Of a stretch of 64,000 nucleotides of DNA, positions 6,073-62,341 are shown piece by piece. Made by a program: the position numbers and the translations under genes. The stretch is taken from assembly GCA_934699095.1 (NCBI GenBank), contig CAKUVI010000006.1, forward strand, positions 56,461-120,460, read 5' to 3'. This DNA comes from an uncultured Bacteroidales bacterium. Lineage in GTDB: Bacteria > Bacteroidota > Bacteroidia > Bacteroidales > WCHB1-69. Under the pieces are notes generated by a model. That model saw nothing but the letters and a program-made list of their open reading frames with translations, had not been told where the DNA came from and did not search any database. Every line of letters begins with the position of its first letter. Position 1 is the stretch's first letter.

Positions 6073-6123
6073 AATTATTTTGTAATATAGTGTTACCATA
6101 TAGAATATCAACATTAAAATGTG

Positions 6124-6131
6124 CAAAAATA
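6124..6131 (-). promoter_or_regulatory. Bacteroidota -7 promoter box (TATTTTTG) for the giant repeat-protein gene
   Basis: The plus strand reads caaaaata, whose complement TATTTTTG fits TAnnTTTG. It lies ~50 nt upstream of the ATG at 6072, with an A-run upstream (AAAAAATGTATTTTTGCA). Confidence 0.6.
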
Positions 6132-6185
6132 CATTTTTTGCAAGAATGTGGCAAAAAAAAAAATAACGCGTCTGGCAGGTGAAAA

Positions 6186-6932
6186 TTATTTCGTGTCGAA
6201 AATCCTGAATTTGGCGAGATGCCATTTCTGGAGGCGGTATTGCAACGATGTGGCAAGCACACCGAGACCGTACTTGCAACTGCGCCTGAAGTTTATGGAG
6301 GAGGCCTCCGGAAAGTATTTGGTGGGACAGGTCATCTCCCCGATTTCAAAGCCTGCGTGGAATATCTGCGCGATCATCTGGTTGTCGAACACGAAGTCGT
6401 CAGAGTTGTTCATGAAAGGCACTTTTCTGAGCACTTCGGATGAGAATGCGCGGTAGCCTGTGTGATATTCCGAGAGCTTCTCGCCCAGGATGAGGTTCTG
6501 CGCAAAAGTGAGGCATCTGTTGAAGAAGTATTTGTAGTACGGCATTCCGCCTCTCAGCGCGCCGCCGCCCAAGATCCTCGAACCCAACACCACGGGGTAG
6601 AGCCCGTTTGCTATCATGTAGGCCATCGATTCTATAAGCTTAGGAGTGTATTGGTAGTCGGGGTGCAGCATGACCACGATGTCGGCTCCCAATTCCAGCG
6701 CCTTCCGGTAGCAGGTCTTCTGGTTGGCCCCGTAACCCTTGTTGGTGGCGTGCTTCACTATGGTGCCGATGCCGAGCTCCCTCGCCCTGAGAAGCGTGTC
6801 GTCACCGGAGTCATCGTCAACCAGAACCACCTCGTCAACAATGTCCAATGGTATCTCCATGTAGGTCTTCTCCAAGGTCTGAGCCGCATTGAAGGCCGGT
6901 AATACAACAACAATCTTTTTCCCTTTCAACAT
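6186..6932 (-). CDS. Glycosyltransferase family 2 (polyprenol-phosphate sugar synthase-like)
   Basis: 248-aa track ORF with its ATG verified at 6932. It has the GT-A N-terminus KIVVVLPAFNAAQTLEKTY and a VLVDDDSGDDT (DxD-type) motif. Confidence 0.85.
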   Translation of the reverse strand: MLKGKKIVVVLPAFNAAQTLEKTYMEIPLDIVDEVVLVDDDSGDDTLLRARELGIGTIVKHATNKGYGANQKTCYRKALELGADIVVMLHPDYQYTPKLIESMAYMIANGLYPVVLGSRILGGGALRGGMPYYKYFFNRCLTFAQNLILGEKLSEYHTGYRAFSSEVLRKVPFMNNSDDFVFDNQMIAQIFHAGFEIGEMTCPTKYFPEASSINFRRSCKYGLGVLATSLQYRLQKWHLAKFRIFDTK

Positions 6933-11514: not shown

Positions 11515-12006
11515 ATGGAAGAGAAGAAATACGTACGTCCTTCGTGGGATGAATATTTTATGGAAATAGCCGAGACTGTGAGCAAACGCGCCACTTGCGA
11601 CCGCGGTAGGAGCGGCTGTGTGGTGGTTCGCGACAGACAGATACTTGTCACAGGCTATGTGGGCGCCCCTAAAGGCCTGCCGCACTGCGATGAGGTCGGG
11701 CATCAGCTTAAACAGATGATCCATGAGGACGGTCATGTGACGCAGCACTGCGTGAGAACAGTTCACGCCGAACAAAACGCGATCTGCCAGGCAGCCAAGC
11801 TCGGCATCTCGCTAAACGGCGCCACGCTCTACTGCAGAATGACCCCTTGCCGCACCTGCGCTATGCTTATCATAAATTGCGGCATCGTGCGAGTTGTGTG
11901 CGGAAGCAAATACCACGCCGGAGCAGAATCTGAACAGATGTTCAAAGACGCCGGCGTCAAATTGGAATTCTTCTCCGACCAAGTTGTAAAATACGAAAAC
12001 CAATAA
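11515..12006 (+). CDS. dCMP (deoxycytidylate) deaminase, ComEB-type
   Basis: 163 aa with the zinc-binding motifs HAEQNA and PCRTCA. Confidence 0.85.
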   Translation: MEEKKYVRPSWDEYFMEIAETVSKRATCDRGRSGCVVVRDRQILVTGYVGAPKGLPHCDEVGHQLKQMIHEDGHVTQHCVRTVHAEQNAICQAAKLGISLNGATLYCRMTPCRTCAMLIINCGIVRVVCGSKYHAGAESEQMFKDAGVKLEFFSDQVVKYENQ

Positions 12007-18433: not shown

Positions 18434-19528
18434 ATGGCAAAAGAATTAGTATTAATGAAGGGAAACCAAGCCATTGCAGAAGCTGCGATCCGTTGCGGTG
18501 CAGATGGTTACTTCGGTTATCCTATTACGCCGCAGTCAGAGGTTTTGGAGCATTTGATGGCGGAGAGACCATACGATGAGAATTCCCCAGCTTATACAGG
18601 AATGACAATTCTTCAAGCAGAGAGTGAATTGGCATCAATCAATATGGTGTATGCTGGTGCTGCAGCAGGCAAGCGCGTCATGACATCATCATCATCCCCC
18701 GGCTTCTCTTTGATGCAAGAGGGCTTGTCATACATCGCAGGCGCAGAGCTTCCTGCAGTGTGCGTCAACGTCGTACGCGGCGGCCCTGGCCTCGGAACCA
18801 TCCAACCTTCACAGTCTGACTATTTCCAGACCACCAAGGGCGGCGGTCACGGCGACTACCGTCTCATCACCCTCGCTCCGGCAACCGTTCAGGAAATGTA
18901 CGATTTCGTTGAGCTCGGTTTCGACTTGGCTTTCAAATACCGCAATCCGGTCGCAATCCTCTCTGACGGTGTGATCGGCCAGGTTATGGAAAAAGTAATG
19001 GTTGACGACTACAAACCACGCTGGACAAACGAATATATCGAAGAACATTGCCCTTGGGCTGCAACAGGTCATCGTTCAACAGGCAAGCACAGAATCGTGA
19101 CTTCACTCGAACTTGAGGCACTCAAACAAGAGGCTATCAACGACCGCATCCAGGCAAAATACAGAAAATGCGAGGAAGAAGACACACGCTACGAAGCAAT
19201 CCAATGCGAGGATGCCGAATATCTGTTCGTGGCTTATGGTTCAGCTGCCCGTATCTGCATGAAATCAATGGAATTGGCCCGCGCTGAGGGTATCAAGGTC
19301 GGCCTCATCCGCCCAATCACACTTTGGCCCTTCCCGACCAAAGCTATCAAGGAAATCGGCGGCCGCATGAAGAAAATCTTGAGCGTTGAAATGAATGCCG
19401 GACAGATGATCGAAGATGTGAGAATGGCTGTTGACTGCAATGTTCCCGTTGAACACTACGGTCGTTACGGTGGCGTTATCCCAACACCGGTAGAAATTCT
19501 CGATGCTTTGAAAAAAATGATTAAATAA
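18434..19528 (+). CDS. 2-oxoacid (likely 2-oxoglutarate):ferredoxin oxidoreductase alpha subunit
   Basis: 364 aa with an N-terminus (KGNQAIAEAAIRCGADGYFGYPITPQSE) typical of the OFOR alpha subunit. The delta-alpha-beta-gamma gene order and subunit sizes match OorDABC-type enzymes. Confidence 0.85.
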   Translation: MAKELVLMKGNQAIAEAAIRCGADGYFGYPITPQSEVLEHLMAERPYDENSPAYTGMTILQAESELASINMVYAGAAAGKRVMTSSSSPGFSLMQEGLSYIAGAELPAVCVNVVRGGPGLGTIQPSQSDYFQTTKGGGHGDYRLITLAPATVQEMYDFVELGFDLAFKYRNPVAILSDGVIGQVMEKVMVDDYKPRWTNEYIEEHCPWAATGHRSTGKHRIVTSLELEALKQEAINDRIQAKYRKCEEEDTRYEAIQCEDAEYLFVAYGSAARICMKSMELARAEGIKVGLIRPITLWPFPTKAIKEIGGRMKKILSVEMNAGQMIEDVRMAVDCNVPVEHYGRYGGVIPTPVEILDALKKMIK

Positions 19529-21192: not shown

Positions 21193-23310
21193 ATGAAAAA
21201 ACTCTCCTTATTAAGCATTATCCTGCTGTTTGCGGCGTTCGTGGCTTCCGCCCAGCGCGTCTCAGAATCTCAGGCATCTTTAGTGTGCAAGAATTTTCTC
21301 ACAGAAAAAGGAAAAACTCCCGACTATCAGTTAAGAATAACAGAAACTTTTACCCAAGAAAACGGCGAATCAGCTTTCTATAGATTCGATATTCCCGACG
21401 GGGGCTTCGTGATTGTTTCTGCCTCAAAAACAACTCCTCCAATCTTGGCCTACTCTTTGTCGAACAATTTTGAACTTATACCCCCGGTGCGTGACCTTTT
21501 TGAGCTTTATAAGGCTGAAATAGAACAGGCTGAAGCCAACAAATGGGACGCCCGTGAAAAAGCTGCAGCTAACTGGAACCACTTCCTTGCCGATGAATTC
21601 AAAGCCAGGGACACTCGCGGCCTGACAGGCGGTCCGCTGCTTACAACCACTTGGGACCAAGGCCGTTACTATAATACCTACTGTCCTTGGGACGTCAATG
21701 CTGGTGCATACTACGACTACCGCGTGCCTAACGGATGTGTTGCCCTCGCATGCTCTCAACTTATAAACTACCACCGCTTCCCTGAAAGCGGTATCGGCGT
21801 GACCACCTACGTTCCTCAAGGCTATCCGAGACAGACCGTCTATTTCTACAAGCACAAATACAACTACGACGCCATGTGTGACCATCCGACCAACTATGCC
21901 AACGAAATCGCAAAGTTAGCCTACCACTTCGGAGTGGCCATCCAAATGAACTACAACTACGACGGCTCCGGCGCCCAAAGTCAACAGGCCAAGGCAAAAC
22001 TTCAATCCGTATTCAACTACGACCAAAGCATCACAACCTATTATCGTGGCAACTACCTTGACACATTGGTGACTGAATTTATCGAAATGCTTAAAAATGA
22101 GATAAATAACAGACGTGTGGTTTATTACTCGGGCTGTAACTCAAGTTATAATTCTTGTCACGCATACCTCCTTGACGGATATGATGAAAACGACCTTTTC
22201 AGCTTGAATTACGGATGGGGCGGCGCGTCAAACGGATACTATGCGATTGATAACTTCGTTGCCGGTCCTACTCACTTTGACTTTGGCTCCGAAACTATTG
22301 TGAACATTTTTCCGTCAGGTGCTGTGGAACCGACTTATTGCCAGGGACATAAGCGCAATACAGCAAGCTTCGGATATGTTGCCGACGGCTCCCCAACAAC
22401 TAAACCCTACCAGTCTAATCCCGATTGCTCTTGGATGGTAGCCGTGCCAGATGCTTATCAATATAACTTCAAATTCGACAGAATCGACCTTAATGAGGGC
22501 GACTATGTCACTATCTACAACGGCCCGACAGAGGAGAGCGGGGTTTTGGTGTCTCTCACAGGCTCTGAACTCCCTCAAAACAACAGCTTCAACGTCTCTG
22601 CCGACAGTGTTTTGATTACCTTCAAGGGAAATACCAACAATACAGACCATTACGGCTTTTTGATATCCTATAGCTCAACTCTCCCCGCCCGAACATGCTC
22701 CGGCACAACTCAGGTTGAGAATGTATGGACCACCACAATCTCGGACGGCTCTCAAGACGGCGAGAATTATATGCCAGAAACTAATTGCACTTGGAACATC
22801 AGACACCAATATATCTCTGGCTATGCTTTTACATTCACAAAGTTTGACCTCGGATACGGTGATTTCGTTGATATCTATAATGCCGGAACCAACCCCGCAA
22901 CTTTCTATAAACGTTTCGACATTAACAATGTGCCGGAAGGCGTATATAACGTGCCTTTCAAACGTATGCAAGTTAAGTTTGTGGCCGACAACTGGGATCA
23001 AAAAGACGGTTTTTCTCTCGGATATTATGCTTTGGCTGCAATTGAAGATTACAACGGCTTGGAAGATCTTACCGTGTATCCGAACCCCGCAACCGACAAT
23101 GTGAACATAGATTTTACAATGAACGAATCAGAAAAGGTTGTGCTCAGTCTGTTCGATATGACAGGAAAAATGCTTCGCAGCATGGATGCCCAAGCATTGA
23201 ATGGCAGCAATCACGTTTCATTTGATGTTTCTGGTCTTGCAAATGGTATCTACGTTCTGGAAATCAATACTGAAAAAGGTAAATCAATAAGAAAAATAAC
23301 TGTCCAATAG
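21193..23310 (+). CDS. C10-family (streptopain/SpeB-like) cysteine peptidase with beta-sandwich domains and a T9SS C-terminal sorting domain
   Basis: 705 aa with a signal peptide. The catalytic Cys context is NGCVALACSQLINYH and the His context is CHAYLLDGYDENDLFSLNYGWGG. The C-terminus LTVYPNPATDNVNIDF...GIYVLEINTEKGKSIRKITVQ is a typical T9SS CTD. Confidence 0.85.
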   Translation: MKKLSLLSIILLFAAFVASAQRVSESQASLVCKNFLTEKGKTPDYQLRITETFTQENGESAFYRFDIPDGGFVIVSASKTTPPILAYSLSNNFELIPPVRDLFELYKAEIEQAEANKWDAREKAAANWNHFLADEFKARDTRGLTGGPLLTTTWDQGRYYNTYCPWDVNAGAYYDYRVPNGCVALACSQLINYHRFPESGIGVTTYVPQGYPRQTVYFYKHKYNYDAMCDHPTNYANEIAKLAYHFGVAIQMNYNYDGSGAQSQQAKAKLQSVFNYDQSITTYYRGNYLDTLVTEFIEMLKNEINNRRVVYYSGCNSSYNSCHAYLLDGYDENDLFSLNYGWGGASNGYYAIDNFVAGPTHFDFGSETIVNIFPSGAVEPTYCQGHKRNTASFGYVADGSPTTKPYQSNPDCSWMVAVPDAYQYNFKFDRIDLNEGDYVTIYNGPTEESGVLVSLTGSELPQNNSFNVSADSVLITFKGNTNNTDHYGFLISYSSTLPARTCSGTTQVENVWTTTISDGSQDGENYMPETNCTWNIRHQYISGYAFTFTKFDLGYGDFVDIYNAGTNPATFYKRFDINNVPEGVYNVPFKRMQVKFVADNWDQKDGFSLGYYALAAIEDYNGLEDLTVYPNPATDNVNIDFTMNESEKVVLSLFDMTGKMLRSMDAQALNGSNHVSFDVSGLANGIYVLEINTEKGKSIRKITVQ

Positions 23311-39624: not shown

Positions 39625-39636
39625 AAACGTACGTTT
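39625..39636. promoter_or_regulatory. Perfect 12-bp palindrome AAACGTACGTTT (copy 1 of 3)
   Basis: Read directly from ctgAAAACGTACGTTTattt. It is identical to the copy at 62205-62216. Confidence 0.6.
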
Positions 39637-39669
39637 ATTTTTAACCAATTACAATATTCCTCCTAATTA

Positions 39670-39697
39670 GAAGAGTGGACTGGGAAGAGTGGACTGG
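39670..39697. repeat. Perfect tandem duplication of a 14-bp unit (GAAGAGTGGACTGG x2)
   Basis: Read directly from gaagagtggactgg gaagagtggactgg, immediately upstream of the terminator hairpin. Confidence 0.85.
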
Positions 39698-39700
39698 TTG

Positions 39701-39737
39701 AAAAAAAGCCCCGTGGGTCACTCCCCACGGGGCTTTC
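39701..39737 (-). terminator. Rho-independent terminator (strong for the minus-strand lipoprotein gene, weaker in the plus direction)
   Basis: The 11-bp stem agccccgtggg / cccacggggct is flanked by aaaaaaa on the plus strand, which is a T-run for the minus-strand transcript. Confidence 0.75.
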
Positions 39738-39762: not shown

Positions 39763-40620
39763 CTAATTGTAATAGTATGTCTCGATGCGCTTCATAGAAA
39801 TACCCAAAGATTCAACATTCCAAGTGCGTTCTGTTGGATATTTGTCATCGTACTTGTATTCATATTTATTTTGGACGATGGTTTCCATGCCCATGATCAT
39901 AAGAACTGTGGTCTCTTCAATGACATTGTTGGCAGAATACAGACCTTCTATTGTCCTAAGTGAGTTGTCGGTGTAGAGGCCGTTAAGTGGGTTGATCATA
40001 TCGTCATGCTTCCAGGTGTTTGTTACGCTCAGTACGCCGTTTGAATAGGTTTCCATTTTTGTGACATTATTGCCGTCCCAAGTGAGTTTATAGGTTGTGG
40101 TGGATTTTGTAGAAGAAGGTTTGATTTGTTCAGCCACTTCAGAAGGAAGTACAAATCTCAGTATGTTCAAGCCTGTCATGGATTTCGACTCAACAGGACT
40201 CAGTGTGATTTCTGTAACGTTTCCGTCAATTTTCTTGAAAGTGTAAACATCCTCTTCGTCAAATTCTTCACTTACACGGGTGATCTTCACCAGATCCTTG
40301 CCTTCGTAGATGAACTTGAAGTCGTTAGAAAACTGTGAGTATTTAACATGCAAAGACTCGATGCGTTTTTTAGAATCGTATTTGAAATTCACAGTGCTGA
40401 TCAAATCGCCACTGCCAGTCTTTGTGATTATGCTGGAAAGCAGCTTTCCATCCCATTGCCATTCCTCAACTTCGGAAACAATTGTTCCTGCATCAGTGAT
40501 GGATGCGCGTTCGATTTTGTCTAATTTTTTCTTGGGAAGATATTGGCCTTCCTTGTGGCAGGAAGAAAACAAGAAAATCCCGACAAGCAAAAATGCGATT
40601 AAATTGAATGTTTTTCTCAT
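39763..40620 (-). CDS. Hypothetical lipoprotein
   Basis: 285 aa with a lipoprotein signal (LFSSC). The sequence is beta-rich. I recognise no family. Confidence 0.6.
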   Translation of the reverse strand: MRKTFNLIAFLLVGIFLFSSCHKEGQYLPKKKLDKIERASITDAGTIVSEVEEWQWDGKLLSSIITKTGSGDLISTVNFKYDSKKRIESLHVKYSQFSNDFKFIYEGKDLVKITRVSEEFDEEDVYTFKKIDGNVTEITLSPVESKSMTGLNILRFVLPSEVAEQIKPSSTKSTTTYKLTWDGNNVTKMETYSNGVLSVTNTWKHDDMINPLNGLYTDNSLRTIEGLYSANNVIEETTVLMIMGMETIVQNKYEYKYDDKYPTERTWNVESLGISMKRIETYYYN

Positions 40621-50076: not shown

Positions 50077-51231
50077 TTAAAATTTTATTGTCTGTACGAA
50101 TTCCGAGAAATAGACACGCCAGTTGCGCCATGTGTGCCCGCCTATGGAGTTGTACATGGTGTACGGGATGTGTTTGCGTTGCATTTTTTTTCTGAAGATG
50201 TTGATCTGCAGGTGGAACAGGTCACCTACGCCGCCTCCGATCCAATAGCGTGAGAAGAGGTCGTGCGGCAGCTGTTTTTTCTTCACCACTGGTGAGAAAA
50301 GGCCAACGTACCTGAATGTGCTGTCGTACATGTTTGCCAGGTTAGCCGCCTGCTTCGCCCCAGCCGACAGTCCGGCAGCTGCACGGCCGCCTTTGACAGG
50401 CGAGAAACGGTATTTTGAGCAGAGAAAGCTGTCAATGCCTTTGAATTCATACTCGAATTCTTTCTTGTTCCAAGAGGGGTAGAGCAGTATGTTCTTGACC
50501 AATCCAACATTCTCTTTTTGGGAGATGAGGCATTCCGGGTTTGCATCGGGCATCACCAGAATCATCGGTATGGCTCGTCCGTCGTCTATGAGATTGTCGA
50601 GTATCTGGGTTGCGCGACCGCGCTCGCTCCAGGCATTCTCATTGCCATTCAGGCCATGGATGAGGTACAATACAGGATAAGTGCTTGTGGTGTCGTTGTA
50701 ATATTGAGGAGGCGTGTAAACGAGCATGTTGCGGTTTTTGCCGCCCTTGGGGTTCTTGTACACTACGGTGTCCACCCTTCCTTTGAGGGAGTCAGTCACA
50801 TAAAGGTTTGACTGAGGTGTGCCGGATATCACAAACATGCTCAGTTTCTCGGTCCTTACGCGTACGGAGTCCGGATTTGTGGGGTCAGGCATGTTGCGGC
50901 CGTCAACGTTGAACTGATAAGTGTAAACTTCAGGGCTGAGCGGTGGGGTGGTGTAGTGCCAGTTGCCGGTGGAGTCCTTGCTCATCTTCGCCTTATGGTA
51001 GTTTTCCCTCTTGATGGTTCTGGTCTCACGGCGCAGCCTGCAATCACATATCACCTTCACGCTGCGCGCCTTAGGATTGGCATAACAGAACGCTACAGAC
51101 CCGTCTTCGTTTACAACTGTGGAGTCTGTGTGGTGCGTCTGTGCGTCTGTGGTAGTGAGTGTCAGGCAGAAAGTGATAAGTGCGATTAACCTATACCAAT
51201 TTAGATTTTTCATGATCCCTGATGGCTTCAT
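50077..51231 (-). CDS. Esterase-family alpha/beta hydrolase with an N-terminal E-set/CBM48-like domain
   Basis: 384 aa with the YPVLYLIHGLNGNENAW motif of the putative esterase family and a GLSAG nucleophile elbow. An alternative ATG at 51213 gives a cleaner signal peptide. Confidence 0.75.
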   Translation of the reverse strand: MKPSGIMKNLNWYRLIALITFCLTLTTTDAQTHHTDSTVVNEDGSVAFCYANPKARSVKVICDCRLRRETRTIKRENYHKAKMSKDSTGNWHYTTPPLSPEVYTYQFNVDGRNMPDPTNPDSVRVRTEKLSMFVISGTPQSNLYVTDSLKGRVDTVVYKNPKGGKNRNMLVYTPPQYYNDTTSTYPVLYLIHGLNGNENAWSERGRATQILDNLIDDGRAIPMILVMPDANPECLISQKENVGLVKNILLYPSWNKKEFEYEFKGIDSFLCSKYRFSPVKGGRAAAGLSAGAKQAANLANMYDSTFRYVGLFSPVVKKKQLPHDLFSRYWIGGGVGDLFHLQINIFRKKMQRKHIPYTMYNSIGGHTWRNWRVYFSEFVQTIKF

Positions 51232-52375
51232 TCAACATTTCCTCAAATTTTGTGATAGAATTGTCGATGCTGTATTTTTCGGCTGATTTCGAATACACAG
51301 CTTCCATTCTAAGGCGTTCTTCAGTGTTGTCAAGCCAGTAGTCGATTGCACGGGCGAGGTCTTTAGGGTCGCCTGCCTTGAAGAGGCTGCGCTCATCGAG
51401 GGCGAACTGGGTTGTCGCAGAGAGCTTGCTGTTGGCGATTACCGGCACAAGACCGGTTGCAAAAGCCTCAATGCAGGAGATGGCCTCAGACTCCATGTCA
51501 GCAGCATGGACGTAAAGGTCGGCCTGAGACAGAAGCGTGATCAGCTCGTCGCGTTTCACATATACGAATTGCGGTTCCAGCGGCAGTGACTTGCCCTGGC
51601 GCTCGTATCTCTCCAACATTGGTCCGCGGCCTGCGAATATCAGTTGGATGCGGTCTGCATATTTCGAATATGGCACTGCATGGATGATGAGTTCCTGCTG
51701 CTTTTCGCGGGTCAGACGGCCCACCATCATGATGAGTATCTTGCCCTTGTATTGGTTGTAAGTCTCTGGACGTGTCTCTTGGATGTTGCGCTTGCCCGCT
51801 TCGATGAACTCCGACTGTATGCCGTTGCTGATGACGTGAAGCTTGGCCTTGTAGCCTCTCTCCTTGATGGTGTCGGCCATGAATTGGGAAGGACAGTGTA
51901 CGTGTTGGAAGTTGTCGTACATGTGGCGGCGGAATAGGCCGTACAGCATGTTGGTGATCCAGGTCACTTTGTGCAAGCCGATGTTAGCGGTGAGGCTCTC
52001 AGGCTGCATGTGATAGGCACCGGTGCAGGGCTTACCTATCTGCATGGCATAGCGCTGGGCCACAATCTCCAGACGGAACGGAAGAAAACAGTGCACGATG
52101 TCTGCCCACTCAACTGCCTTGTGGATGGTCTTGAGAGTCTCCTTGCCATAGAACTTGGCGAAGTTGAAGTTGTGCTTGTTCATCAACGGCTGGAAAATCG
52201 GCATGTGGAAATAGCGTACGGAAAACAGGTTGACGTCTGTCTCCCCCGATTCGTTCGCCGCTAAAATCCGCACCTCGTGACCGCGCTTTCTCAATTCCTT
52301 GGCATAACGCTGCGCTGAAATGCTTGTGCCGTTGTTGTTTGTGTAATAGGTGTCAATAACAAATAATATCTTCAT
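51191..52375 (-). CDS. Glycosyltransferase family 4 (GT-B fold)
   Basis: 394 aa. The N-terminus MKILFVIDTYYTNNNGTSISAQRYAKELRKRGHEVRILA and a C-terminal E-x7-E region (ESEAISCIEA) are present. Confidence 0.85.
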   Translation of the reverse strand: MKILFVIDTYYTNNNGTSISAQRYAKELRKRGHEVRILAANESGETDVNLFSVRYFHMPIFQPLMNKHNFNFAKFYGKETLKTIHKAVEWADIVHCFLPFRLEIVAQRYAMQIGKPCTGAYHMQPESLTANIGLHKVTWITNMLYGLFRRHMYDNFQHVHCPSQFMADTIKERGYKAKLHVISNGIQSEFIEAGKRNIQETRPETYNQYKGKILIMMVGRLTREKQQELIIHAVPYSKYADRIQLIFAGRGPMLERYERQGKSLPLEPQFVYVKRDELITLLSQADLYVHAADMESEAISCIEAFATGLVPVIANSKLSATTQFALDERSLFKAGDPKDLARAIDYWLDNTEERLRMEAVYSKSAEKYSIDNSITKFEEMLNEAIRDHEKSKLV

Positions 52376-52519: not shown

Positions 52520-52527
52520 CAAAAATA
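52520..52527 (-). promoter_or_regulatory. -7 promoter box (TATTTTTG) for the GT4/esterase/PCMD string
   Basis: The plus strand reads caaaaata. It lies ~145 nt upstream of the ATG at 52375, and the extended sequence AAAAAATGTATTTTTGCA is shared with the box at 6124. Confidence 0.5.
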
Positions 52528-52614: not shown

Positions 52615-52626
52615 AATCGTACGTTT
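52615..52626. promoter_or_regulatory. Near-palindrome AATCGTACGTTT (11/12 match to AAACGTACGTTT; copy 2 of 3)
   Basis: Read directly from tttaAATCGTACGTTTgaat. It sits between divergent promoter boxes at 52520 (-) and 52653 (+). Confidence 0.5.
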
Positions 52627-52652
52627 GAATCGGTCGGTAATGATTATTATTG

Positions 52653-52660
52653 TAATTTTG
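52653..52660 (+). promoter_or_regulatory. -7 promoter box (TAATTTTG) for the WG-repeat/uvrA-like pair
   Basis: Fits TAnnTTTG and lies ~19 nt upstream of the ATG at 52679. Confidence 0.5.
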
Positions 52661-52678: not shown

Positions 52679-54226
52679 ATGTTTGATATGCTTAAACATC
52701 TGAGCAATAGTGTTTTATGTGTGATGTTTTTGAGTGTGCTGATCCTTGGTTTTACTATGGCAGATGCTCAAGACAACATACCGTATATAGAAACCGAAAT
52801 CCAAGATGTGACACCATATCATATCCAGTACCGATTATTGCATAATGACGAATGCCATCATGTGTATATATACAAAGACCGAGGTGACGAAGTTGAGTTG
52901 ATGTCAAAAATGTTCGGGCTGTCTTACGAGGATGTCGTGTTCCATTGGGGATGGCGTTTCGATTCTATATGGTCTCACTTTTGGACTGACTTAAAGCCAA
53001 GAAAAGAATACACCATTTGGTCTGTTCCGGCAGATTCATCAGACCGACTTTTCAATTTTGTCGGCACCTCTTTTATGACCGCTCCTATAGGTGGGCATGG
53101 TAAGTCTTCAATACAGGTGTACAGCAGTTTTATAACAGACACTGCTTCATATGTGGTGTGCGAGCCTAACGCTGAAACTTGTGGATATCATAATGGTATC
53201 GTATCTGCATCTTGGTACGAAAAACTCGGTCTTGACTCGTTATGCAGTATAATTAACAGATTTCCCGCGATCTACCAGACTGACAGGTGGGGACGCCTTC
53301 TGCTAAACCACGGTACGCGCTATTGCATGATTGCCTTCGGCCAAAATGCCGATGGAGTGCCAGGCGACACTACAGTGCACTGGTTCACAACGCCTGGAGA
53401 TTTGCAGGTTAATGAACTTGACACCATACCTGTTATCTCATATTGCTCTTCTGAAGACAATACATTAGACATACCGCAAGAATTTCTCAATCAATATATT
53501 GTCAGGATTAGCAAACCAGACAGATCGAAAATGCTACAGGAAGTTTTGCTTGGAGATGAGAATGTAATATTTGCCTCGCTTCCTGTTGGTGATTATTTTG
53601 TTGAGGTGATCAGGAAAGATGATGGAAAAATAATAAAGGAGATACGTATCTACAACAGAAAAAAGGAAGTTGTTGTTGAAACACACAAAGAAAACGAAGG
53701 CTTTACATGGACAAAACTTCGTCAGGACTACCTATACGCTGTCGGGGATTCTTCGGGAAAGGCCATAACACCGTTCGTGTTCACACGGTTAGACTATACA
53801 GATGGCTTTTTTAAGGGCAGAACCCATTCAGGAAAAAGACTTTACGATGTAATTCTTACAAAACAAGGTGATTATTTGATAGGTCCCGACCGCGGCTATG
53901 ACTACATTAATTACAATGGATTTGAAAATACTTTTTGGTTCTCGAAAAACAGGAAAATGGGTATTTGCGATTCACGTGGAAAGAATATAATCGCCCCGAT
54001 TTATGACGATATTGTCAGTTGGGAACTCTACTATGAAGTGAATCAAAATGGTTTGAAAGGTTGTGTTGACAAAAGCGGGCGAGTGATATTTCAACCTCAA
54101 TTTGATAGTTTTGAAAAGGACAAATATGGGTTCAAGGCGATGAAAGGCGGGGTGGAGTATTATATAGATTCAAAAGGCAAAGTTTTAGGTACATCAGATC
54201 AAGAAACAGAACTAATAGAGGAATAG
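52679..54226 (+). CDS. Secreted hypothetical protein with C-terminal WG/KWG-type beta-propeller-like repeats
   Basis: 515 aa with a signal peptide (LILGFTMADAQ). The C-terminal repeats (KMGICDSRGKNIIAPIYDDI, LKGCVDKSGRVIFQPQFDSF, VEYYIDSKGKVLG) fit the WG-containing repeat pattern. The gene is visibly AT-rich. Confidence 0.65.
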   Translation: MFDMLKHLSNSVLCVMFLSVLILGFTMADAQDNIPYIETEIQDVTPYHIQYRLLHNDECHHVYIYKDRGDEVELMSKMFGLSYEDVVFHWGWRFDSIWSHFWTDLKPRKEYTIWSVPADSSDRLFNFVGTSFMTAPIGGHGKSSIQVYSSFITDTASYVVCEPNAETCGYHNGIVSASWYEKLGLDSLCSIINRFPAIYQTDRWGRLLLNHGTRYCMIAFGQNADGVPGDTTVHWFTTPGDLQVNELDTIPVISYCSSEDNTLDIPQEFLNQYIVRISKPDRSKMLQEVLLGDENVIFASLPVGDYFVEVIRKDDGKIIKEIRIYNRKKEVVVETHKENEGFTWTKLRQDYLYAVGDSSGKAITPFVFTRLDYTDGFFKGRTHSGKRLYDVILTKQGDYLIGPDRGYDYINYNGFENTFWFSKNRKMGICDSRGKNIIAPIYDDIVSWELYYEVNQNGLKGCVDKSGRVIFQPQFDSFEKDKYGFKAMKGGVEYYIDSKGKVLGTSDQETELIEE

Positions 54227-54228
54227 TG

Positions 54229-56757
54229 ATGATAACAGAAGGAAATAAGGAAGGAGAACATTATAGTAAAGAACAAAAGCCGGACAGCATTCGAGTTCAT
54301 GGAGCACGGGTGCACAATCTCAAAAACATAGATGTAAACGTCCCGTTGCACAAGATCGTGGCGGTTGCGGGTGTGTCAGGTTCTGGCAAGTCGTCGTTGG
54401 CATTGGGTGTGCTGTATGCCGAGGGGTCGCGCCGTTACCTGGAGTCGCTCTCTACTTACACCCGCCGCCGCATGACGCAGGCAGCAAAGGCGGATGTTGA
54501 CGAGATATTGTATGTGCCGGCCGCTCTCGCGCTGCACCAGCGGCCGTCGGTGCCTGGCATCCGCTCCACTTTCGGCACCGGCACGGAGCTGCTCAACAGT
54601 CTGCGCCTGATGTACTCACGCTTGGCGGAGCACCGCTGTCCTAACGGGCATTATCTGCGTCCGTCGTTGGCTGTTGCGGCCGGTCAGGAGTCGGTGTGTC
54701 CGGAGTGTGGCGAACATTTCTACGCGCCGGGAGCCGAGGAACTCGCCTTCAACAGTCAGGGTGCCTGCCGACATTGTGGCGGCACAGGCATGGTGCGCAC
54801 CGTTGACATCGCAACCCTCGTGCCAGACCAGTCGCTCTCTATCGACCAAGGCGCCGTGGCACCTTGGAACAGCCTCATGTGGTCGCTCATGACCGATGTG
54901 TGCCGCGCCATGGGTGTCCGCACCGATGTCCCTTTCTGCGAACTTACTGACAAAGAGAAGGATATTGTCTATAACGGACCTGCTGAGAAAAAACATATTC
55001 TCTACAAGTCGAAGAATTCGAATGTTTCTGGGGAGATGGATTTCACGTACTATAATGCAGTATATACTGTGGAGAATGCATTGGCCAAGGTGAAAGATGA
55101 GAAAGGCATGAAGAGGGTTGAGAAGTTCCTCAGGGAGGATGTCTGCCCGGAATGCCACGGCACACGTCTCTCGGAAGCGGCTCGGGCACCACGTCTGCGC
55201 TGCATCGGTCTTGACGAGGCCTGTACCATGACTCTGTCGCAGCTCTCTGAATGGGTTGACGGTGTGCCGGCTTCGCTCCCTGAAGAGATGCGCCCGATGG
55301 CCGAGAGCATCTGCGAGTCGTTCCGCACTGCCGCCGCCCGCCTCATGGACCTCGGGCTCGGATACCTTACCCTCGACCGCGCCGCCTCGACTCTCTCAAC
55401 GGGCGAACGGCAACGTATGCAATTGGCACGCGCAGTGCGCAACCGCACAACAGGAGTACTCTATGTCCTTGACGAACCGTCCATTGGACTGCATCCATCT
55501 AACATCGTGGGCCTCAATGGCGTGATGCACGACCTCGTGGCCGACGGCAATACGGTGCTCTTGGTTGACCACGACACACAGATACTTCAAGAAGCCGATT
55601 GGATGATTGAACTCGGACCGGAAGCCGGTGCCAACGGAGGAAGAGTGATTGCTGAAGGTACTGTTGATGACATTGTCGCTAATCCTGAATCCCAAATAGG
55701 ACCTTTCCTCAATAAAAATCAAGTTCACGGATGGAATGAGTCTGATGCCGACAGTCTGTTTGAATTCGGAAAGATTCATCTTTCAACAAAAATGATACAT
55801 ACCGTAAAGCCTTTGGAGGTGGATATTCCCAAAGGAAAACTCACGGTTGTGACCGGCGTGTCGGGCTCCGGCAAGACCACAATGATATTGGAGAGCCTTG
55901 TGCCGGCATTAGAGGCGATGACAGCAAAGAAGCAGATGCCAGGACATGTAGCCGGAATATCAGCGGACGGCATTGAACATGTAAAACTCATCGATGCTTC
56001 GCCTATAGGCGTAAACGTGCGTTCCACGGTGGCTACATACGCAAACGTACATGACGAACTGCGCAAGATATATGCCCGTTCAGCAGAAGCCAAAAAGCGC
56101 GGCTATAATGCTGGCGATTTCTCCTACAATACCGGAATCCTGCGCTGCCCCGTCTGCGACGGGACAGGGTCGATAAGCCTTGATGTACAGTTTTTGCCGG
56201 ATGTTGATATCCCTTGTCCTGATTGCAGGGGCTCGCGCTATTCGAAGGCGGCATATAGTGTGCACCACACGAACAAGTGCGATGAAACACGCTCGCTGCC
56301 CGAATTGATGGACATGGACGTGCGTTCTGCAATGGATTTCTGCAGGGATATGAAAAATGTTTACCCAAAACTTGAGGTCCTCAACAGTCTCGGGTTGGGC
56401 TATCTTACCCTCGGTGAAGAGACCCCAAGCCTGTCGGGCGGTGAAGCGCAACGCCTGAAGTTGGCCACTGAGATGGGCCGCCTCCAGCATGATTCGGTGT
56501 TTGTGTTCGACGAACCTACAATCGGACTCCACCCGTTGGATGTACGTACACTGTTGCAAGTGTTTGACACTCTGATAAAAAACGGTGCCACAGTGGTGGT
56601 TATTGAACACGACCTTGACGTTATCCGAGCCGCTGACTATATCATTGATATGGGGCCTGGCGGCGGCGACGACGGCGGAAGAATCGTTGCCACCGGCACA
56701 CCCTTGCAAGTGGCTCATAACAAAAACAGCATAACAGGTTCTTTCCTGCTATGCTGA
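54229..56757 (+). CDS. UvrA-family ABC ATPase paralog lacking the UvrB-binding domain (class II-like UvrA)
   Basis: The track start at 54226 is a GTG and the ATG is at 54229. It has two ABC modules ([21 protein letters not shown]; signatures [24 protein letters not shown]). Only ~17 aa separate the CPNGH and CPECG zinc ligands, where canonical UvrA carries the ~140-aa UvrB-binding domain. Confidence 0.85.
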
Positions 56758-56786
56758 ATTTGTGTCTGACTTCTGGTACAGAAAGT

Positions 56787-59396
56787 CTATTTCAACACGG
56801 CATTGAGCATCATCTCACCCAAGCCGATGTGGTAGCCTTCTGACACGAACAGTATGTTGCCGAGTTTGTCAACAACAAGACAAACAGGCCTTTCTCCCGT
56901 GGTGTGGCTCATGAATCCGTCGTGGACGGCATTGTTCAAAGCATCGGTAATGCATGAAGTGACATCTCCGGTGGCTTTGGTGATGACTTCCAAATTTGCC
57001 GGCTGATTTTTTTCCTTCTTCCAATTGTTGTTGGGCGACACGAAGAAAATCTTGCCTCCCCACGTCTCATAATCCTTCTGTTTGGCAGCCATCTCTTTCG
57101 CCAAATGGTTTGTCGGCTCCGATCCTGGCAGTACAAGGCAGAGGATCATCTTGTCTTTGCCCGATTCAGAAATCAGCTGCGCCAAACTCTTCCCGTTGAT
57201 TTTAGCGGTTGTCAGGTTTATCCTGCCGAAGTTGTTGGTGCGAGGTGTCAACTCTGGTATGGTAACTGTCAGATCGTAGTGATCTTGGGCCTTGAGTGTG
57301 AAAAACTTAAGTTGAGATTGTACTTCGCCATCGCTGTAACGGTTGCCGGTTGACAAGCAGTAGTTGCCAGCTGGAAGGTTGAGCGTATAGTGACTTTTCT
57401 CCACCCTTGGGTCTCCCTCAAAATCGTATGAAACGTATTCACCGTTTTCGAAACGTTGGATAGTGTAGTGGATATAGTAGGTGTAGTTGTCAGGATTATG
57501 GATTGTGAGATTTGCAAGTTTGTCTTGCGGAACAACCTCTTTGTTTTCAAATGTGAACTCCTGCCAAGTGCTGTTTGTCCATACGTAGATGTTGTTGGAG
57601 GCGTTGTCGAGGTAGCATGGAATGTTGCAGCTGCGGCATGCCGCAACGAAGAAAATGTCACGGGAGTGAGCATCGGAACGTTTGGTCTTCAACACACCCA
57701 TCGGGCTGATAGGACAATTGTAATAGTTGCATAGCGGGTCAACAGTGATGAATTTTTTTGTCCAGTTGAAGATAGACTGAGCGGTAGGTGCAGGATCGGG
57801 GAGTGCTTCAGAGAAAAACATGAAAAGGTCAGATCTCCAATCTCTGATCAGTTCGTTTGAGATACGGGCCGGCAAAATACCTTTTACAAATATGTCTTTT
57901 GGTAATTTGGTGTTTCTGTGGTACTTCAGCTGTTTTTCTAAAGTTTCTGCCTCGGTATCGCGCAAATCTTTGTCTGCCAAAGCGTTAACGAACTCTTTGA
58001 GATATAGTCCGTCCTCTTTTTTGCTGTGATTTTGGAGAAATTTTATGATTTCAGCATGATTGCCCTCGCTACGATGTATTATATCAAAGAACTCGTCATC
58101 GCTGAAATATTCGTTGTGATACTTGGCTGTCTGTTGTCTTGTGGGGAATGTGGCGCGATAGGCCTCTCTTTTTTTGTCTTCTTTGGCTAATCTTTTGTCG
58201 CAAGCTGCTTGAGCTGAGGTACTTACAAAAGAATTCAAGGGCTTTCCTGCTGGCGGGTTCATGTCTAAAAGTTTAGGAATAGAGATCTCGCTAGACAAGG
58301 TCGCTTCCTCAAAGTCTTTGAGAATCAAGACTAAATGGTTCTGTTTGCGCAGGTCAAGTTTCGACCAAGCGAAGTCGTTGCTCTGTTTGGCCCACACTAA
58401 CAGGTCGCCGAGTCCGGTGTTCAGCTTGGCACGCCCGTCTTTGTCTGTTTTCACCTCGGCAAGCGTATAATATTCGGCGTAATTGTATAGTTTGAAGCAT
58501 ACAGATGCGTTTTTGGCCGGTCTGTGCAGTTTGTCGTAAACGGTGACGTATGCGGTGGTTGTGTCGGCGTAGTTTGAAAGGAGATTGATGCAGGAATAAT
58601 AGGGGGTCTGTTTGTTCACTTCTTCAGATCCGTTGTATTTGCCGAAAACATTGGTGTGAACCATCATTGTTCGGGTGGATACGTTTGCGAACCAGCCCAT
58701 GTTAAGAGCTGGTGCAGGTTCGCAGGCGCCGAGGAAGTACCATTTGCCGTCAACCCAAACTTCCACCCAGGCGTGGTTGTCGTCGCAGTGTGCCCAGCGC
58801 GGGGTATAGCACTGGCGTGCGGGAATTCCCACAGCGCGCAAGGCAGTCACAGTGAGAGTGCTCTCTTCGCCGCAACGCCCGTGCGATGTGCGCAACGTGG
58901 CCAAAGGCGCCGATGTGCGGGCATCGGCCGGCTGGTAGTCAACATATTCATGGCACCAGTGGTTCACCTCAAGTGCCGCATCATACATGCTCATGTCTTT
59001 GATGCGATTTTTCAGCTGGTGGAAGATGTATGAGCGCGCCGTGTCCAAATTCTCGTTGTTCACCCTGTAAACCAATACAAAATGACGGAATACATCCTCC
59101 GGAACTTTAGCACCCCATGAAAATGTCTTGCGTGCTTCGCATGCTATCGCCACTTGCTGCTCGAAAAACGACAAATCGTAGTCGGCAAGATCGCTTTGCG
59201 GCATGTATGCATACAAGAATTTCAGATAATTTGCAGTCTCTTTGTCGTATGAGTTGATTTTCGTGATTAAGGCTTCAGTGACACCGTCCCTGTTATTGAA
59301 ATCCTGTTCAACTGTCTTCCAATAATCAGTTTGAGAAGTGGCGGTGAATATTGTTACAATAGTTACAAATGAGATGATGACTGTTTTTTTGAGCAT
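56787..59396 (-). CDS. Secreted transglutaminase-like (Cys-His-Asp papain-fold) domain protein, large multidomain
   Basis: 869 aa with a signal peptide and the core GRCGEESTLTVTALRAVGIPARQCYTPRWAHCDDNHAWVEVWVDGKWYFLGACEP. It lies 12 nt downstream of the DUF5689-like gene. Confidence 0.75.
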   Translation of the reverse strand: MLKKTVIISFVTIVTIFTATSQTDYWKTVEQDFNNRDGVTEALITKINSYDKETANYLKFLYAYMPQSDLADYDLSFFEQQVAIACEARKTFSWGAKVPEDVFRHFVLVYRVNNENLDTARSYIFHQLKNRIKDMSMYDAALEVNHWCHEYVDYQPADARTSAPLATLRTSHGRCGEESTLTVTALRAVGIPARQCYTPRWAHCDDNHAWVEVWVDGKWYFLGACEPAPALNMGWFANVSTRTMMVHTNVFGKYNGSEEVNKQTPYYSCINLLSNYADTTTAYVTVYDKLHRPAKNASVCFKLYNYAEYYTLAEVKTDKDGRAKLNTGLGDLLVWAKQSNDFAWSKLDLRKQNHLVLILKDFEEATLSSEISIPKLLDMNPPAGKPLNSFVSTSAQAACDKRLAKEDKKREAYRATFPTRQQTAKYHNEYFSDDEFFDIIHRSEGNHAEIIKFLQNHSKKEDGLYLKEFVNALADKDLRDTEAETLEKQLKYHRNTKLPKDIFVKGILPARISNELIRDWRSDLFMFFSEALPDPAPTAQSIFNWTKKFITVDPLCNYYNCPISPMGVLKTKRSDAHSRDIFFVAACRSCNIPCYLDNASNNIYVWTNSTWQEFTFENKEVVPQDKLANLTIHNPDNYTYYIHYTIQRFENGEYVSYDFEGDPRVEKSHYTLNLPAGNYCLSTGNRYSDGEVQSQLKFFTLKAQDHYDLTVTIPELTPRTNNFGRINLTTAKINGKSLAQLISESGKDKMILCLVLPGSEPTNHLAKEMAAKQKDYETWGGKIFFVSPNNNWKKEKNQPANLEVITKATGDVTSCITDALNNAVHDGFMSHTTGERPVCLVVDKLGNILFVSEGYHIGLGEMMLNAVLK

Positions 59397-60741: not shown

Positions 60742-61995
60742 TTATTTTGACAAGCCTTTGATTGCAATATTGGATATGTACCACGATGATTTGTCGCAGT
60801 CGTGGCGGAAGGCCATTCTGAACGTCGGTGAAGCGGCTTCGGCAGGAAGTGCCACAGAAACATCGCTCTGGGCCGTTGATCCGGAGTACTGAGACAGGTC
60901 AATCTGAGTCCATTGGGTTGTGGTGGGGTCGCCGGTGTAGTTGGTCGTGTAGTAGCAACGCATTTTTTCAGGGAAGAATGTTTTCGGGGCGCGGTGCGTG
61001 AAGTTGAGCGTGGGCTCTTGCACACCGCTCATGTTGATGGCCGGGGAAATGAGCCACTTGTCCTGAACCTCCGATGGATTGATGGAGAAGCCGCTGAAGC
61101 TGCTGTTGCTCAAAGTGTACCACTCATTGCCAGTTCCGCTCTGCGTCCAGCCGTTGTCGAAAGCTGTTGTGTAGTCGCTGACAGAATAGATGGTCTGCAT
61201 CGTCTGTGGCACAGAGAAGTTCTCGAGGTCGTCAAGACTGCTGATGACAAGTTGGACTGTGCTGTTGTAGCGGGTGAGGATGCCGGTGATATTGCCGACT
61301 CCCACGGGCAGCGTAGTGCCTGCAAATTTCGCGTAGTTGCTGGTCCGCAGGGTGATGGTTGACCCGTCCGTCATCTTGATGTCATGGCTGGTGGCTGCAT
61401 TCGGCTCGGAGAAGGTGGCGATGCCTCCCTCTACGAATGACGCTCCTTCCAATCGTACCAAACGGTTGTAATATTCGGTTGGAATGTCGTTGGCGCCAGG
61501 TATGCTCGTGAAGACTATGGTAGGGGAGACAGGCTGCGGGGTTCCGTCTATGAAGATGTACTTATAGGCCTTGTTGCTCGGTATGGCCTGCATAGAACCG
61601 TTAACCCACATGCCAAGCTGATGTAGCTTGCGGTAGTCGCCGATGTGCAGTCCGTCGCACTTCACATACACACGCTGTCCGACCTTGTACTTGTTGTATA
61701 GGGCGGTGCTGTTGATTTTGATCTGGATTCCGGCGGTGCCGTCCTCGATGTTGATGGATTTGTAGTTGTTGCCCCACTCGTCGGAGGTGGTTACAATTCC
61801 GGTGATGATTGTGCCCGCTGGAATGGTGTCGTAGGAATCCAAATCCCCGCACTCATGCAGCGACAGCAATTCGGCAATTGTCATGTTTGCTTCCCCGTCA
61901 AATGTAGGCACCGGGGCAATGTCAGGTTCCAGGTTGCAACCTTGTAGAAAAAGGCATCCTATTATAATAATCGATGCTAAATGTCTGAATTTCAT
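60742..61995 (-). CDS. Surface lipoprotein, paralog of 59409..60704 (DUF5689-like plus choice-of-anchor-J-like)
   Basis: 417 aa with a lipoprotein signal (FLQGC). It has the same architecture: VTTSDEWGNNYKSINIEDGTAGIQIKI...YKVGQRVYVKCDGLHIGDY, and a C-terminal NGWTQS...DKWLISPAI. Confidence 0.6.
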   Translation of the reverse strand: MKFRHLASIIIIGCLFLQGCNLEPDIAPVPTFDGEANMTIAELLSLHECGDLDSYDTIPAGTIITGIVTTSDEWGNNYKSINIEDGTAGIQIKINSTALYNKYKVGQRVYVKCDGLHIGDYRKLHQLGMWVNGSMQAIPSNKAYKYIFIDGTPQPVSPTIVFTSIPGANDIPTEYYNRLVRLEGASFVEGGIATFSEPNAATSHDIKMTDGSTITLRTSNYAKFAGTTLPVGVGNITGILTRYNSTVQLVISSLDDLENFSVPQTMQTIYSVSDYTTAFDNGWTQSGTGNEWYTLSNSSFSGFSINPSEVQDKWLISPAINMSGVQEPTLNFTHRAPKTFFPEKMRCYYTTNYTGDPTTTQWTQIDLSQYSGSTAQSDVSVALPAEAASPTFRMAFRHDCDKSSWYISNIAIKGLSK

Positions 61996-62089: not shown

Positions 62090-62097
62090 CAAAAATA
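62090..62097 (-). promoter_or_regulatory. -7 promoter box (TATTTTTG) for the DUF5689-like/transglutaminase operon
   Basis: The plus strand reads caaaaata. It lies ~95 nt upstream of the ATG at 61995. Confidence 0.5.
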
Positions 62098-62204: not shown

Positions 62205-62216
62205 AAACGTACGTTT
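62205..62216. promoter_or_regulatory. Perfect 12-bp palindrome AAACGTACGTTT (copy 3 of 3) in a divergent intergenic region
   Basis: Read directly from atagAAACGTACGTTTtccc. It is identical to 39625-39636 and lies between divergent promoter boxes at 62090 (-) and 62334 (+). Confidence 0.6.
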
Positions 62217-62333: not shown

Positions 62334-62341
62334 TATATTTG
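62334..62341 (+). promoter_or_regulatory. -7 promoter box (TATATTTG) for the right-edge surface-protein gene
   Basis: AAAAAATGTATATTTGCAGG. It lies ~141 nt upstream of the ATG at 62482, giving a long leader. Confidence 0.5.

Follow-up and report, generated by a model that had tools for sequence, protein, structure and literature searches.

Short palindromes between genes of a gut Bacteroidales genome are probably empty docking sites for a small invertible, mobile cassette

The stretch of DNA analysed here in its entirety (64 kb, hereafter the window) comes from an uncultured Bacteroidales bacterium and is densely packed with genes, a simple gene model assigning 94.3% of it to coding sequence and 5.7% to intergenic DNA. 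That intergenic fraction harbors all three copies of a 12-bp palindrome. The motif AAACGTACGTTT is found exactly at 39625-39636 (site 1) and at 62205-62216 (site 3), while AATCGTACGTTT, a copy with one mismatch, is found at 52615-52626 (site 2). Site 2 separates a GT4 glycosyltransferase operon from a divergent operon encoding a 515-aa WG-repeat protein and a UvrA-like protein, and site 3 separates a DUF5689-DUF5689-transglutaminase operon from a divergent DUF2436/T9SS gene. A first-pass annotation of this DNA had listed the same three copies, two exact and one mismatched, had described all of them as intergenic, and had placed two of them between divergent promoter boxes. Our window scan and gene model agree on each point, the boxes being matches to the Bacteroidetes-type -7 pattern TAnnTTTG on both sides of sites 2 and 3. 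The relevant features are as follows.

39625-39636, no strand assigned: site 1, perfect palindrome, between convergent gene ends
39705-39736, minus strand: terminator hairpin of a 285-aa lipoprotein gene (39763-40620, minus strand), 13-bp arms, 100% complementary
52520-52527, minus strand: -7 box TATTTTTG, TAnnTTTG match, upstream of the GT4 operon (51191-52375, minus strand)
52615-52626, no strand assigned: site 2, AATCG-TA-CGTTT, central TA at 52620-52621, putative empty docking site
52653-52660, plus strand: -7 box TAATTTTG, TAnnTTTG match, upstream of the 515-aa WG-repeat gene (52679-54226) and the UvrA-like gene
62090-62097, minus strand: -7 box TATTTTTG, TAnnTTTG match, upstream of the DUF5689 operon (gene at 60742-61995, minus strand), about 113 bp from the site 3 centre
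62205-62216, no strand assigned: site 3, perfect palindrome AAACG-TA-CGTTT, central TA at 62210-62211, putative empty docking site
62334-62341, plus strand: -7 box TATATTTG, TAnnTTTG match, upstream of the DUF2436/Por_Secre_tail gene starting at 62482, about 123 bp from the site 3 centre

The Por_Secre_tail domain in a full-length copy of the DUF2436 protein (contig L008) identifies it as cargo of type IX secretion. It is not the only secreted protein in the window, since 21193-23310 encodes a second one, a C10-family (streptopain-like) peptidase with an I69 inhibitor prodomain, CUB domains and a type IX secretion C-terminal domain. At the edge of the window, a very large ORF on the minus strand (1-6225) runs off the window start, spans at least 2074 aa inside the window and contains internal repeats of about 207-216 bp (roughly 70 aa) that fall into families D1-D4; its product is probably a giant repetitive surface protein. 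As for the -7 pattern, the right half of the site 2 palindrome together with the next base (52620-52627) reads TACGTTTG and itself fits TAnnTTTG, a fit limited to the lineage of the window, the sister clade having C for the final G.

How surprising is the recurrence of such a motif? The first-pass annotation had put the expectation for a specified 12-mer at about 0.004, a post hoc figure, given that 565 different 12-mers are present two or more times in the window. Its broader point, that the recurrence is non-random, was upheld by simulation. The window has 22 palindromic 12-mer positions, and AAACGTACGTTT alone recurs. When intergenic DNA was simulated with Markov models of order 1 and order 2 (6000 sets per order), a 12-bp palindrome with at least four G/C common to two intergenic segments appeared in 0.03% of the order-1 sets and in none of the order-2 sets, and no simulated set of either order contained a third near-copy. 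The recurrence of the palindrome in intergenic DNA is not due to chance (P about 3e-4 or less). One could still see in the three copies a functionless AT-flanked palindrome that recurred fortuitously, given the many repeated 12-mers and the fact that the motif was picked after the sequence had been read. However, shared palindromes of this composition are found in at most 0.03% of the simulations, and two of the three sites are the exact insertion points of a cassette in sister strains (see below), which makes this reading hardly credible.

Other simple explanations of the motif were considered as well. CGTACG, ACGT and GTAC are present in the window at the counts expected from Markov models, with no avoidance, and this rules out a restriction-site signature. 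The sole other ACGTACGT in the window, at 11531-11538, lies 16 nt inside a deoxycytidylate-deaminase-like gene, has different flanks (ATACGTACGTCC) and falls outside the motif family. The Mpi-dependent invertible promoters of Bacteroides fragilis have the inverted-repeat core ARACGTWCGT, to which the annotation had likened the palindrome. The likeness is exact, since the core AAACGTACGT fits this consensus on either strand at sites 1 and 3 (39625 and 62205), the only two matches in the window. A literature check for the ARACGTWCGT and hixC strings gave no match, the key papers lying beyond its reach. The annotation was also right that a partner repeat is missing nearby, none being present in the window within 1.5 kb of sites 1, 2 or 3. 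By contrast, the similarity that it saw between the flanks of the two perfect copies does not extend into a longer common repeat, and comparison of the flanks of the three sites in the window revealed no shared repeat beyond the 12-mer.

We compared the window with other assemblies of the species, from Hadza and other human-gut sources, including the metagenome-assembled genome (MAG) GCA_045225055.1. Alleles in which a site is occupied were reached through variants of the flanking proteins within 90% clusters, which led to contigs of a sister clade whose flanks are 96.5% identical to those of the window. The places shown from 22, 17 and 17 contigs with flanking genes are all collinear with the window, so that an island, or a large inversion, between sites 1 and 3 can be excluded. 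A local difference was seen between the UvrA-like and transglutaminase genes. Only 30 bp separate them in the window (~56757-56787); in the sister strains, tandem repeats of about 88 bp form an array there, together with an ORF of 88 aa and a 152-aa transposase gene of the IS200-like Y1 type (L043, 15276-16300; L044, 5665-6386; L082, 4277-5008). Outside the species, the closest relatives have DUF5689 proteins that are 57-68% identical, and the palindrome was not found upstream of the orthologues in these relatives. They are too distant for the missing motif to be informative, and cross-species footprinting consequently failed.

Site 1 is the least eventful of the three. Because of the hairpin at 39705-39736, it belongs to a terminator region rather than a promoter region. 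It is empty in 7/7 places shown, which stand for 22 contigs and represent five distinct haplotypes, and no occupied form was found among them. In two of the seven places it is mutated (AAACCTACGTTT in L004 and AAACGTAGGGTT in L007); the palindrome thereby contributes three substitutions, that is, 3 of the about 14 variable positions in the 180-bp intergenic alignment, while its flanks are about 93-97% conserved. Between site 1 and the terminator hairpin lies a strain-variable indel, a 14-bp unit (GAAGAGTGGACTGG) that is tandemly duplicated at 39668-39695 in the window and in L001 and L005, and single-copy in L002-L004, L006 and L007.

These observations bear on the possibility that the palindrome is the operator of a dimeric transcription factor that co-regulates surface-protein and glycosylation operons, insertion of a cassette there being incidental. 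A perfect palindrome in two divergent promoter regions is what one would look for in an operator, and extended palindromes in unrelated metagenome contigs (described below) lie about 100 bp upstream of genes for ABC-transporter binding proteins and flank a sigma70-like promoter match. However, the spacing to the promoter differs from site to site, the distance to the -7 box being 32 bp from the centre of site 2 (to TAATTTTG) and about 113-123 bp to both boxes at site 3, with no promoter at site 1. Moreover, site 1 is broken in 2/7 places, no regulator gene turned up among the window genes scanned with Pfam, and an operator does not predict the cassette junctions. That the orthologous upstream regions of relatives (57-67% protein identity) are without the motif carries little weight, owing to the distance of these relatives. 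The first-pass annotation had judged an operator at least as likely as a recombination site. With inconsistent spacing to promoters and a mutated site 1, that judgement is not supported, and we consider an operator improbable; the link to recombination that it had also proposed holds up, since sister strains carry a cassette with AAWCGTACG repeats at sites 2 and 3.

The clearest example is site 3. Where the window reads GATAGAAACGTACGTTTTCCC, the sister-strain contig L043 reads ...GATAGAAACGTACGTT/ATTGTTAAGC...(529 bp)...GGCTTAATTTAAT/CGTACGTTTTTCC..., slashes marking the junctions, which corresponds to a net insertion of 529 bp of non-coding DNA inside CGTACG. The left junction of L043 is found again in L044-L047, L054 and L082, most contigs ending inside the insert. 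A single orientation of the cassette was seen at this site, in 7/7 contigs.

Site 2 exists in three states. It is empty in the sister-strain contig L033, as it is in the window. In orientation A, the GT4 side (L034, L035, L040, L041 and L042) reads ...AAWCGTACG/ATTTTGTTAAGCATTTT..., which is the left end of the cassette, and the 515-aa side (L053, L054, L084 and L085) reads ...GGCTTAACAAAAT/CGTACGTTTCAATCGG. In orientation B, the GT4 side (L036-L038) has the reverse complement of the cassette right end and the 515-aa side (L082 and L083) has the reverse complement of the left end. For each orientation, both junctions can be read from one source: L036 (GT4 side) and L082 (515-aa side) come from the single MAG GCA_045225055.1 for orientation B, and L041 and L084 from the single sample SRR24639056 for orientation A. 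The cassettes found in the two orientations are close copies, identical at 99/99 positions of the right end and 134/145 positions of the left end. All three states occur within the sister clade on flanks that are 99.0-99.5% identical, and the state of the site is independent of flank similarity, which indicates that turnover is fast. Both orientations were not seen within any single sample at site 2, and, instead of a flip in place, the A and B forms could also reflect a cassette that left and re-inserted, or separate insertion events at a target that is symmetric. As at site 3, there is micro-variation directly at the junctions of site 2. One contig (L054, 1-40) has a right junction that is without the 5 nt between GCTTAA and CGTACG (GGCTTAAC/CGTACG), either an imprecise recombination product or an artefact of the contig end. 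Given the 32-bp distance noted above, a cassette docked at site 2 would abut the -33 region of the 515-aa operon promoter.

The cassette is bounded by inverted repeats of 18-21 bp with the structure AAWCGTACG-ATTTTG-TTAAGC, those at site 2 being a perfect 18-bp repeat (CGTACGATTTTGTTAAGC), or a 21-bp repeat with one mismatch when AAW is counted. Each junction consists of an outer half-site, the central TA and an inner half-site, whereas the palindrome in the window consists of outer half, TA and outer half, which would make it an empty attB-like site or an excision product. CGTACG is present at both junctions, and a 2-6-bp duplication and a conservative crossover core fit this equally well. 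The cassette is multi-copy, the copies at sites 2 and 3 being about 87% identical, and the contigs of many assemblies break inside it. No credible ORF was found in it, no Rfam family scored above threshold (the best, Gut-1, reached 23.7 bits against a threshold of 50) and no match was found in plasmid and phage collections. If transcribed, it would fold into a strong RNA structure (z = -5.3), although the terminal repeats account for part of this. The cassette subtype at site 2 has one TAnnTTTG box (TACTTTTG) followed by a terminator-like hairpin, and the site 3 cassette has none on either strand, so the latter is probably not a classical promoter inverton. Cassette ends were found neither in the window nor in loci of the window lineage, and the flanks in the window contain no cassette sequence beyond the 12-mer. 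With no such remnant, both a virgin target and an excision scar are compatible with the sites of the window. In a rumen Bacteroidales MAG of a different genus (L012), a 57-nt stretch at 18842-18898 is 79% identical to the cassette interior and keeps the hairpin pairing, and AAAAGTACGTTT is found about 210 nt downstream (19109-19120). No inverted-repeat partner is recognisable for this segment, which may be a decayed relative of the cassette.

Could the cassette simply be a miniature transposable element? It might be a MITE, a non-autonomous IS moved by a DDE transposase encoded elsewhere that favours targets with symmetry. The target-site duplication would then be CGTACG, or the GTAC or TA within it, the true terminal repeats would be ATTTTGTTAAGC...GCTTAACAAAAT, and the palindromes in the window would be preferred targets that have not been used. 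Much about the cassette is in keeping with this: its terminal inverted repeats, multiple copies, non-coding nature, size of about 0.5 kb and tendency to break assemblies, its presence/absence polymorphism with clean empty sites, and the CGTACG at both junctions that a duplication would give. IS200-like elements do occur in the sister strains, and symmetric target consensus sequences with a duplication are known for IS10 and IS481. However, one cassette subtype is found at one site in both orientations on 99.5%-identical backgrounds, along with an empty allele, which would need repeated precise excision and re-insertion, and this is unusual for DDE elements. In addition, the target AAWCG-TA-CGWTT is common to the ends of the element itself, as attB and attP would be, target preference alone offers no explanation for the enrichment of the 12-mer in intergenic DNA, and no transposase partner was seen. 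Within the limited search space of the fetched loci, plasmid and phage collections and a metagenome pattern scan, no autonomous element turned up that combines these termini with a transposase. On balance, we think a MITE rather unlikely.

Taken with the occupied alleles, the architecture of the sites points instead to site-specific recombination, and the palindrome is probably a recombination site in its empty state, the partner of a small cassette that is both invertible and mobile. On this docking-site model, the partner repeat would be missing from the window because the sites of the window strain are empty. A recombinase encoded elsewhere would bind the sites and exchange strands within CGTACG, probably at the central TA. 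This would lead to inversion, to excision of the cassette as a circle with the junction GCTTAACAAAAT-CGTACG-ATTTTGTTAAGC (expected sequence, GCTTAACAAAATCGTACGATTTTGTTAAGC), and to re-integration at AAWCGTACGTTT sites. Since the core is self-complementary, it has no polarity, and the cassette could dock, flip or leave. For serine recombinases, a self-complementary TA core without polarity is expected to permit deletion and integration besides inversion. The model does not by itself account for three such rare 12-mers within 23 kb.

Which enzyme would act at these sites? Pfam scans and precomputed Pfam hits revealed no recombinase, resolvase or HTH regulator domain in the window genes (the partial ORF at 1-6225 excluded), and tblastn with Hin and with Gin from phage Mu found no Hin/Gin-like ORF in about 1 Mb of fetched DNA. 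With no recombinase gene nearby, the enzyme would act in trans. The sites can be laid out as 12-2-12 around TA (TTAACAAAATCG-TA-CGATTTTGTTAA), and the inner half TTAACAAAATCG agrees with the gix half-site of phage Mu, TTATCCAAAACC, at 8/12 positions, a modest, AT-rich likeness that is possible by chance. A 12-6-12 layout fits as well, and a tyrosine-recombinase site of this form would suit the sequence equally. Bacteroides tyrosine invertases usually act locally (PMC7641763), and in B. fragilis a single serine enzyme, Mpi, serves at least 13 scattered loci as master invertase (PMC5903667). From the 12-2-12 layout, the gix likeness, the TA core, the lack of an adjacent recombinase gene and the precedent of Mpi, we favour a Hin/Gin/Mpi-like serine invertase as the putative enzyme, while a serine recombinase, a tyrosine recombinase or a transposase would all be compatible with the cassette data. 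In its most ambitious form, the proposal is a mobile-inverton system in which one trans-acting master recombinase of the host would excise, invert and re-insert a family of small non-coding cassettes, some of them with promoters, at 12-bp sites that are self-complementary. We put this forward tentatively, as a possibility rather than an expectation.

Viewed against what is known, the cassette and its docking sites are a variant of site-specific inversion and insertion systems. The Mpi regions are similar in having a Bacteroidales host, short segments upstream of surface-structure genes, inverted repeats and no adjacent recombinase (PMC5903667). They also share the core, which here fits ARACGTWCGT, and a segment found in both orientations, here at site 2 and in sister strains only. 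In contrast to the Mpi regions, the window strain has single 12-bp palindromes that enclose no invertible segment. The cassette behaves as a mobile element, near-identical strains differing at more than one locus in whether they carry it, the copy at site 3 has no recognisable promoter, and no Mpi homologue was found in the fetched DNA. The hix/gix sites of the Hin/Gin/Cin/Pin (Din-family) invertases, 26 bp long with 12-bp half-sites and a 2-bp crossover, have a layout that also fits the cassette sites, including one well-conserved and one poorer half at each cassette junction. They differ in that the central TA is self-complementary here while gix has TC, and that no invertase gene lies beside the segment.

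Two kinds of non-autonomous element also invite comparison. MITEs with strict targets, such as the Correia elements of Neisseria (TA duplication, unknown transposase) and IS481-type elements that insert into 6-bp palindromes, resemble the cassette in being small, non-coding, multi-copy, strain-variable, assembly-disrupting and intergenic near promoters, with terminal repeats. Unlike them, the cassette has a 12-bp palindromic target that resembles its own termini, and the same copy is found flipped on near-identical backgrounds. The elements that exploit XerCD/dif are likewise non-autonomous, with an enzyme encoded elsewhere, a short dyad-symmetric chromosomal site and clean empty and filled alleles. 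The cassette is distinct from these in having several chromosomal sites instead of one dif, an unrelated site sequence and either orientation.

Related sites may exist well outside the species studied here. When metagenomes were scanned for one arm of the repeat, most of the 27 hits were single coding matches without a partner repeat, and a viral pattern scan gave chance or coding matches only. The metagenome hits also included four unrelated JGI contigs (GC 42-56%) with the full 30-32-bp perfect palindrome GCTTAA-N6-CGTACG-N6-TTAAGC built around AAACGTACGTTT, the perfect palindromes extending over 30-52 bp. These come in pairs 137 or 297 bp apart, enclosing segments that are promoter-like or AT-rich, near lipoprotein or ABC-transporter genes.

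L055, 1356-1520: palindrome pair
L079, 2004-2165: palindrome pair
L076, 3676-4002: palindrome pair
L081, 810-1136: palindrome pair

In L055 and L079, homologous segments of ~130 bp lie between the two sites, each with a sigma70-like promoter match (TTGACG-N17-TAATAT), and they align at 82% in reverse complement and 63% directly. In L076 and L081, the two palindromes are 297 bp apart, between divergent paralogous genes for ABC-transporter binding proteins. These contigs suggest that the site grammar GCTTAA-N6-CGTACG-N6-TTAAGC may be used more widely than in this species, and if the mobile-inverton reading is true, the system would be widespread.

What would this mean for the organism? In the window strain, the three sites are probably latent switch positions beside surface-protein and glycosylation operons rather than active regulators. 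If the cassette is a MITE, it would be a case of unusually strict palindromic target choice. If a trans-acting invertase is responsible, the breaks of metagenome assemblies at cassette sites would have a biological cause, and inversion, deletion and integration would all be open to one enzyme by virtue of the self-complementary crossover core. Such a system would be a natural means of exchanging cassettes and might serve as a tool for Bacteroidales genome engineering. The short motif AAWCGTACGWTT would then mark latent switch positions in genomes that look static. Invertible promoters of gut Bacteroidales are usually regarded as loci that stay in place and change orientation only; here, the unit that flips is itself gained or lost at 12-bp palindromes between 99%-identical strains, beside glycosylation genes and genes of secreted and surface proteins. 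If the mobile-inverton reading holds, strains less than 1% apart would differ in the occupancy and orientation of cassettes at the promoters of their surface genes.
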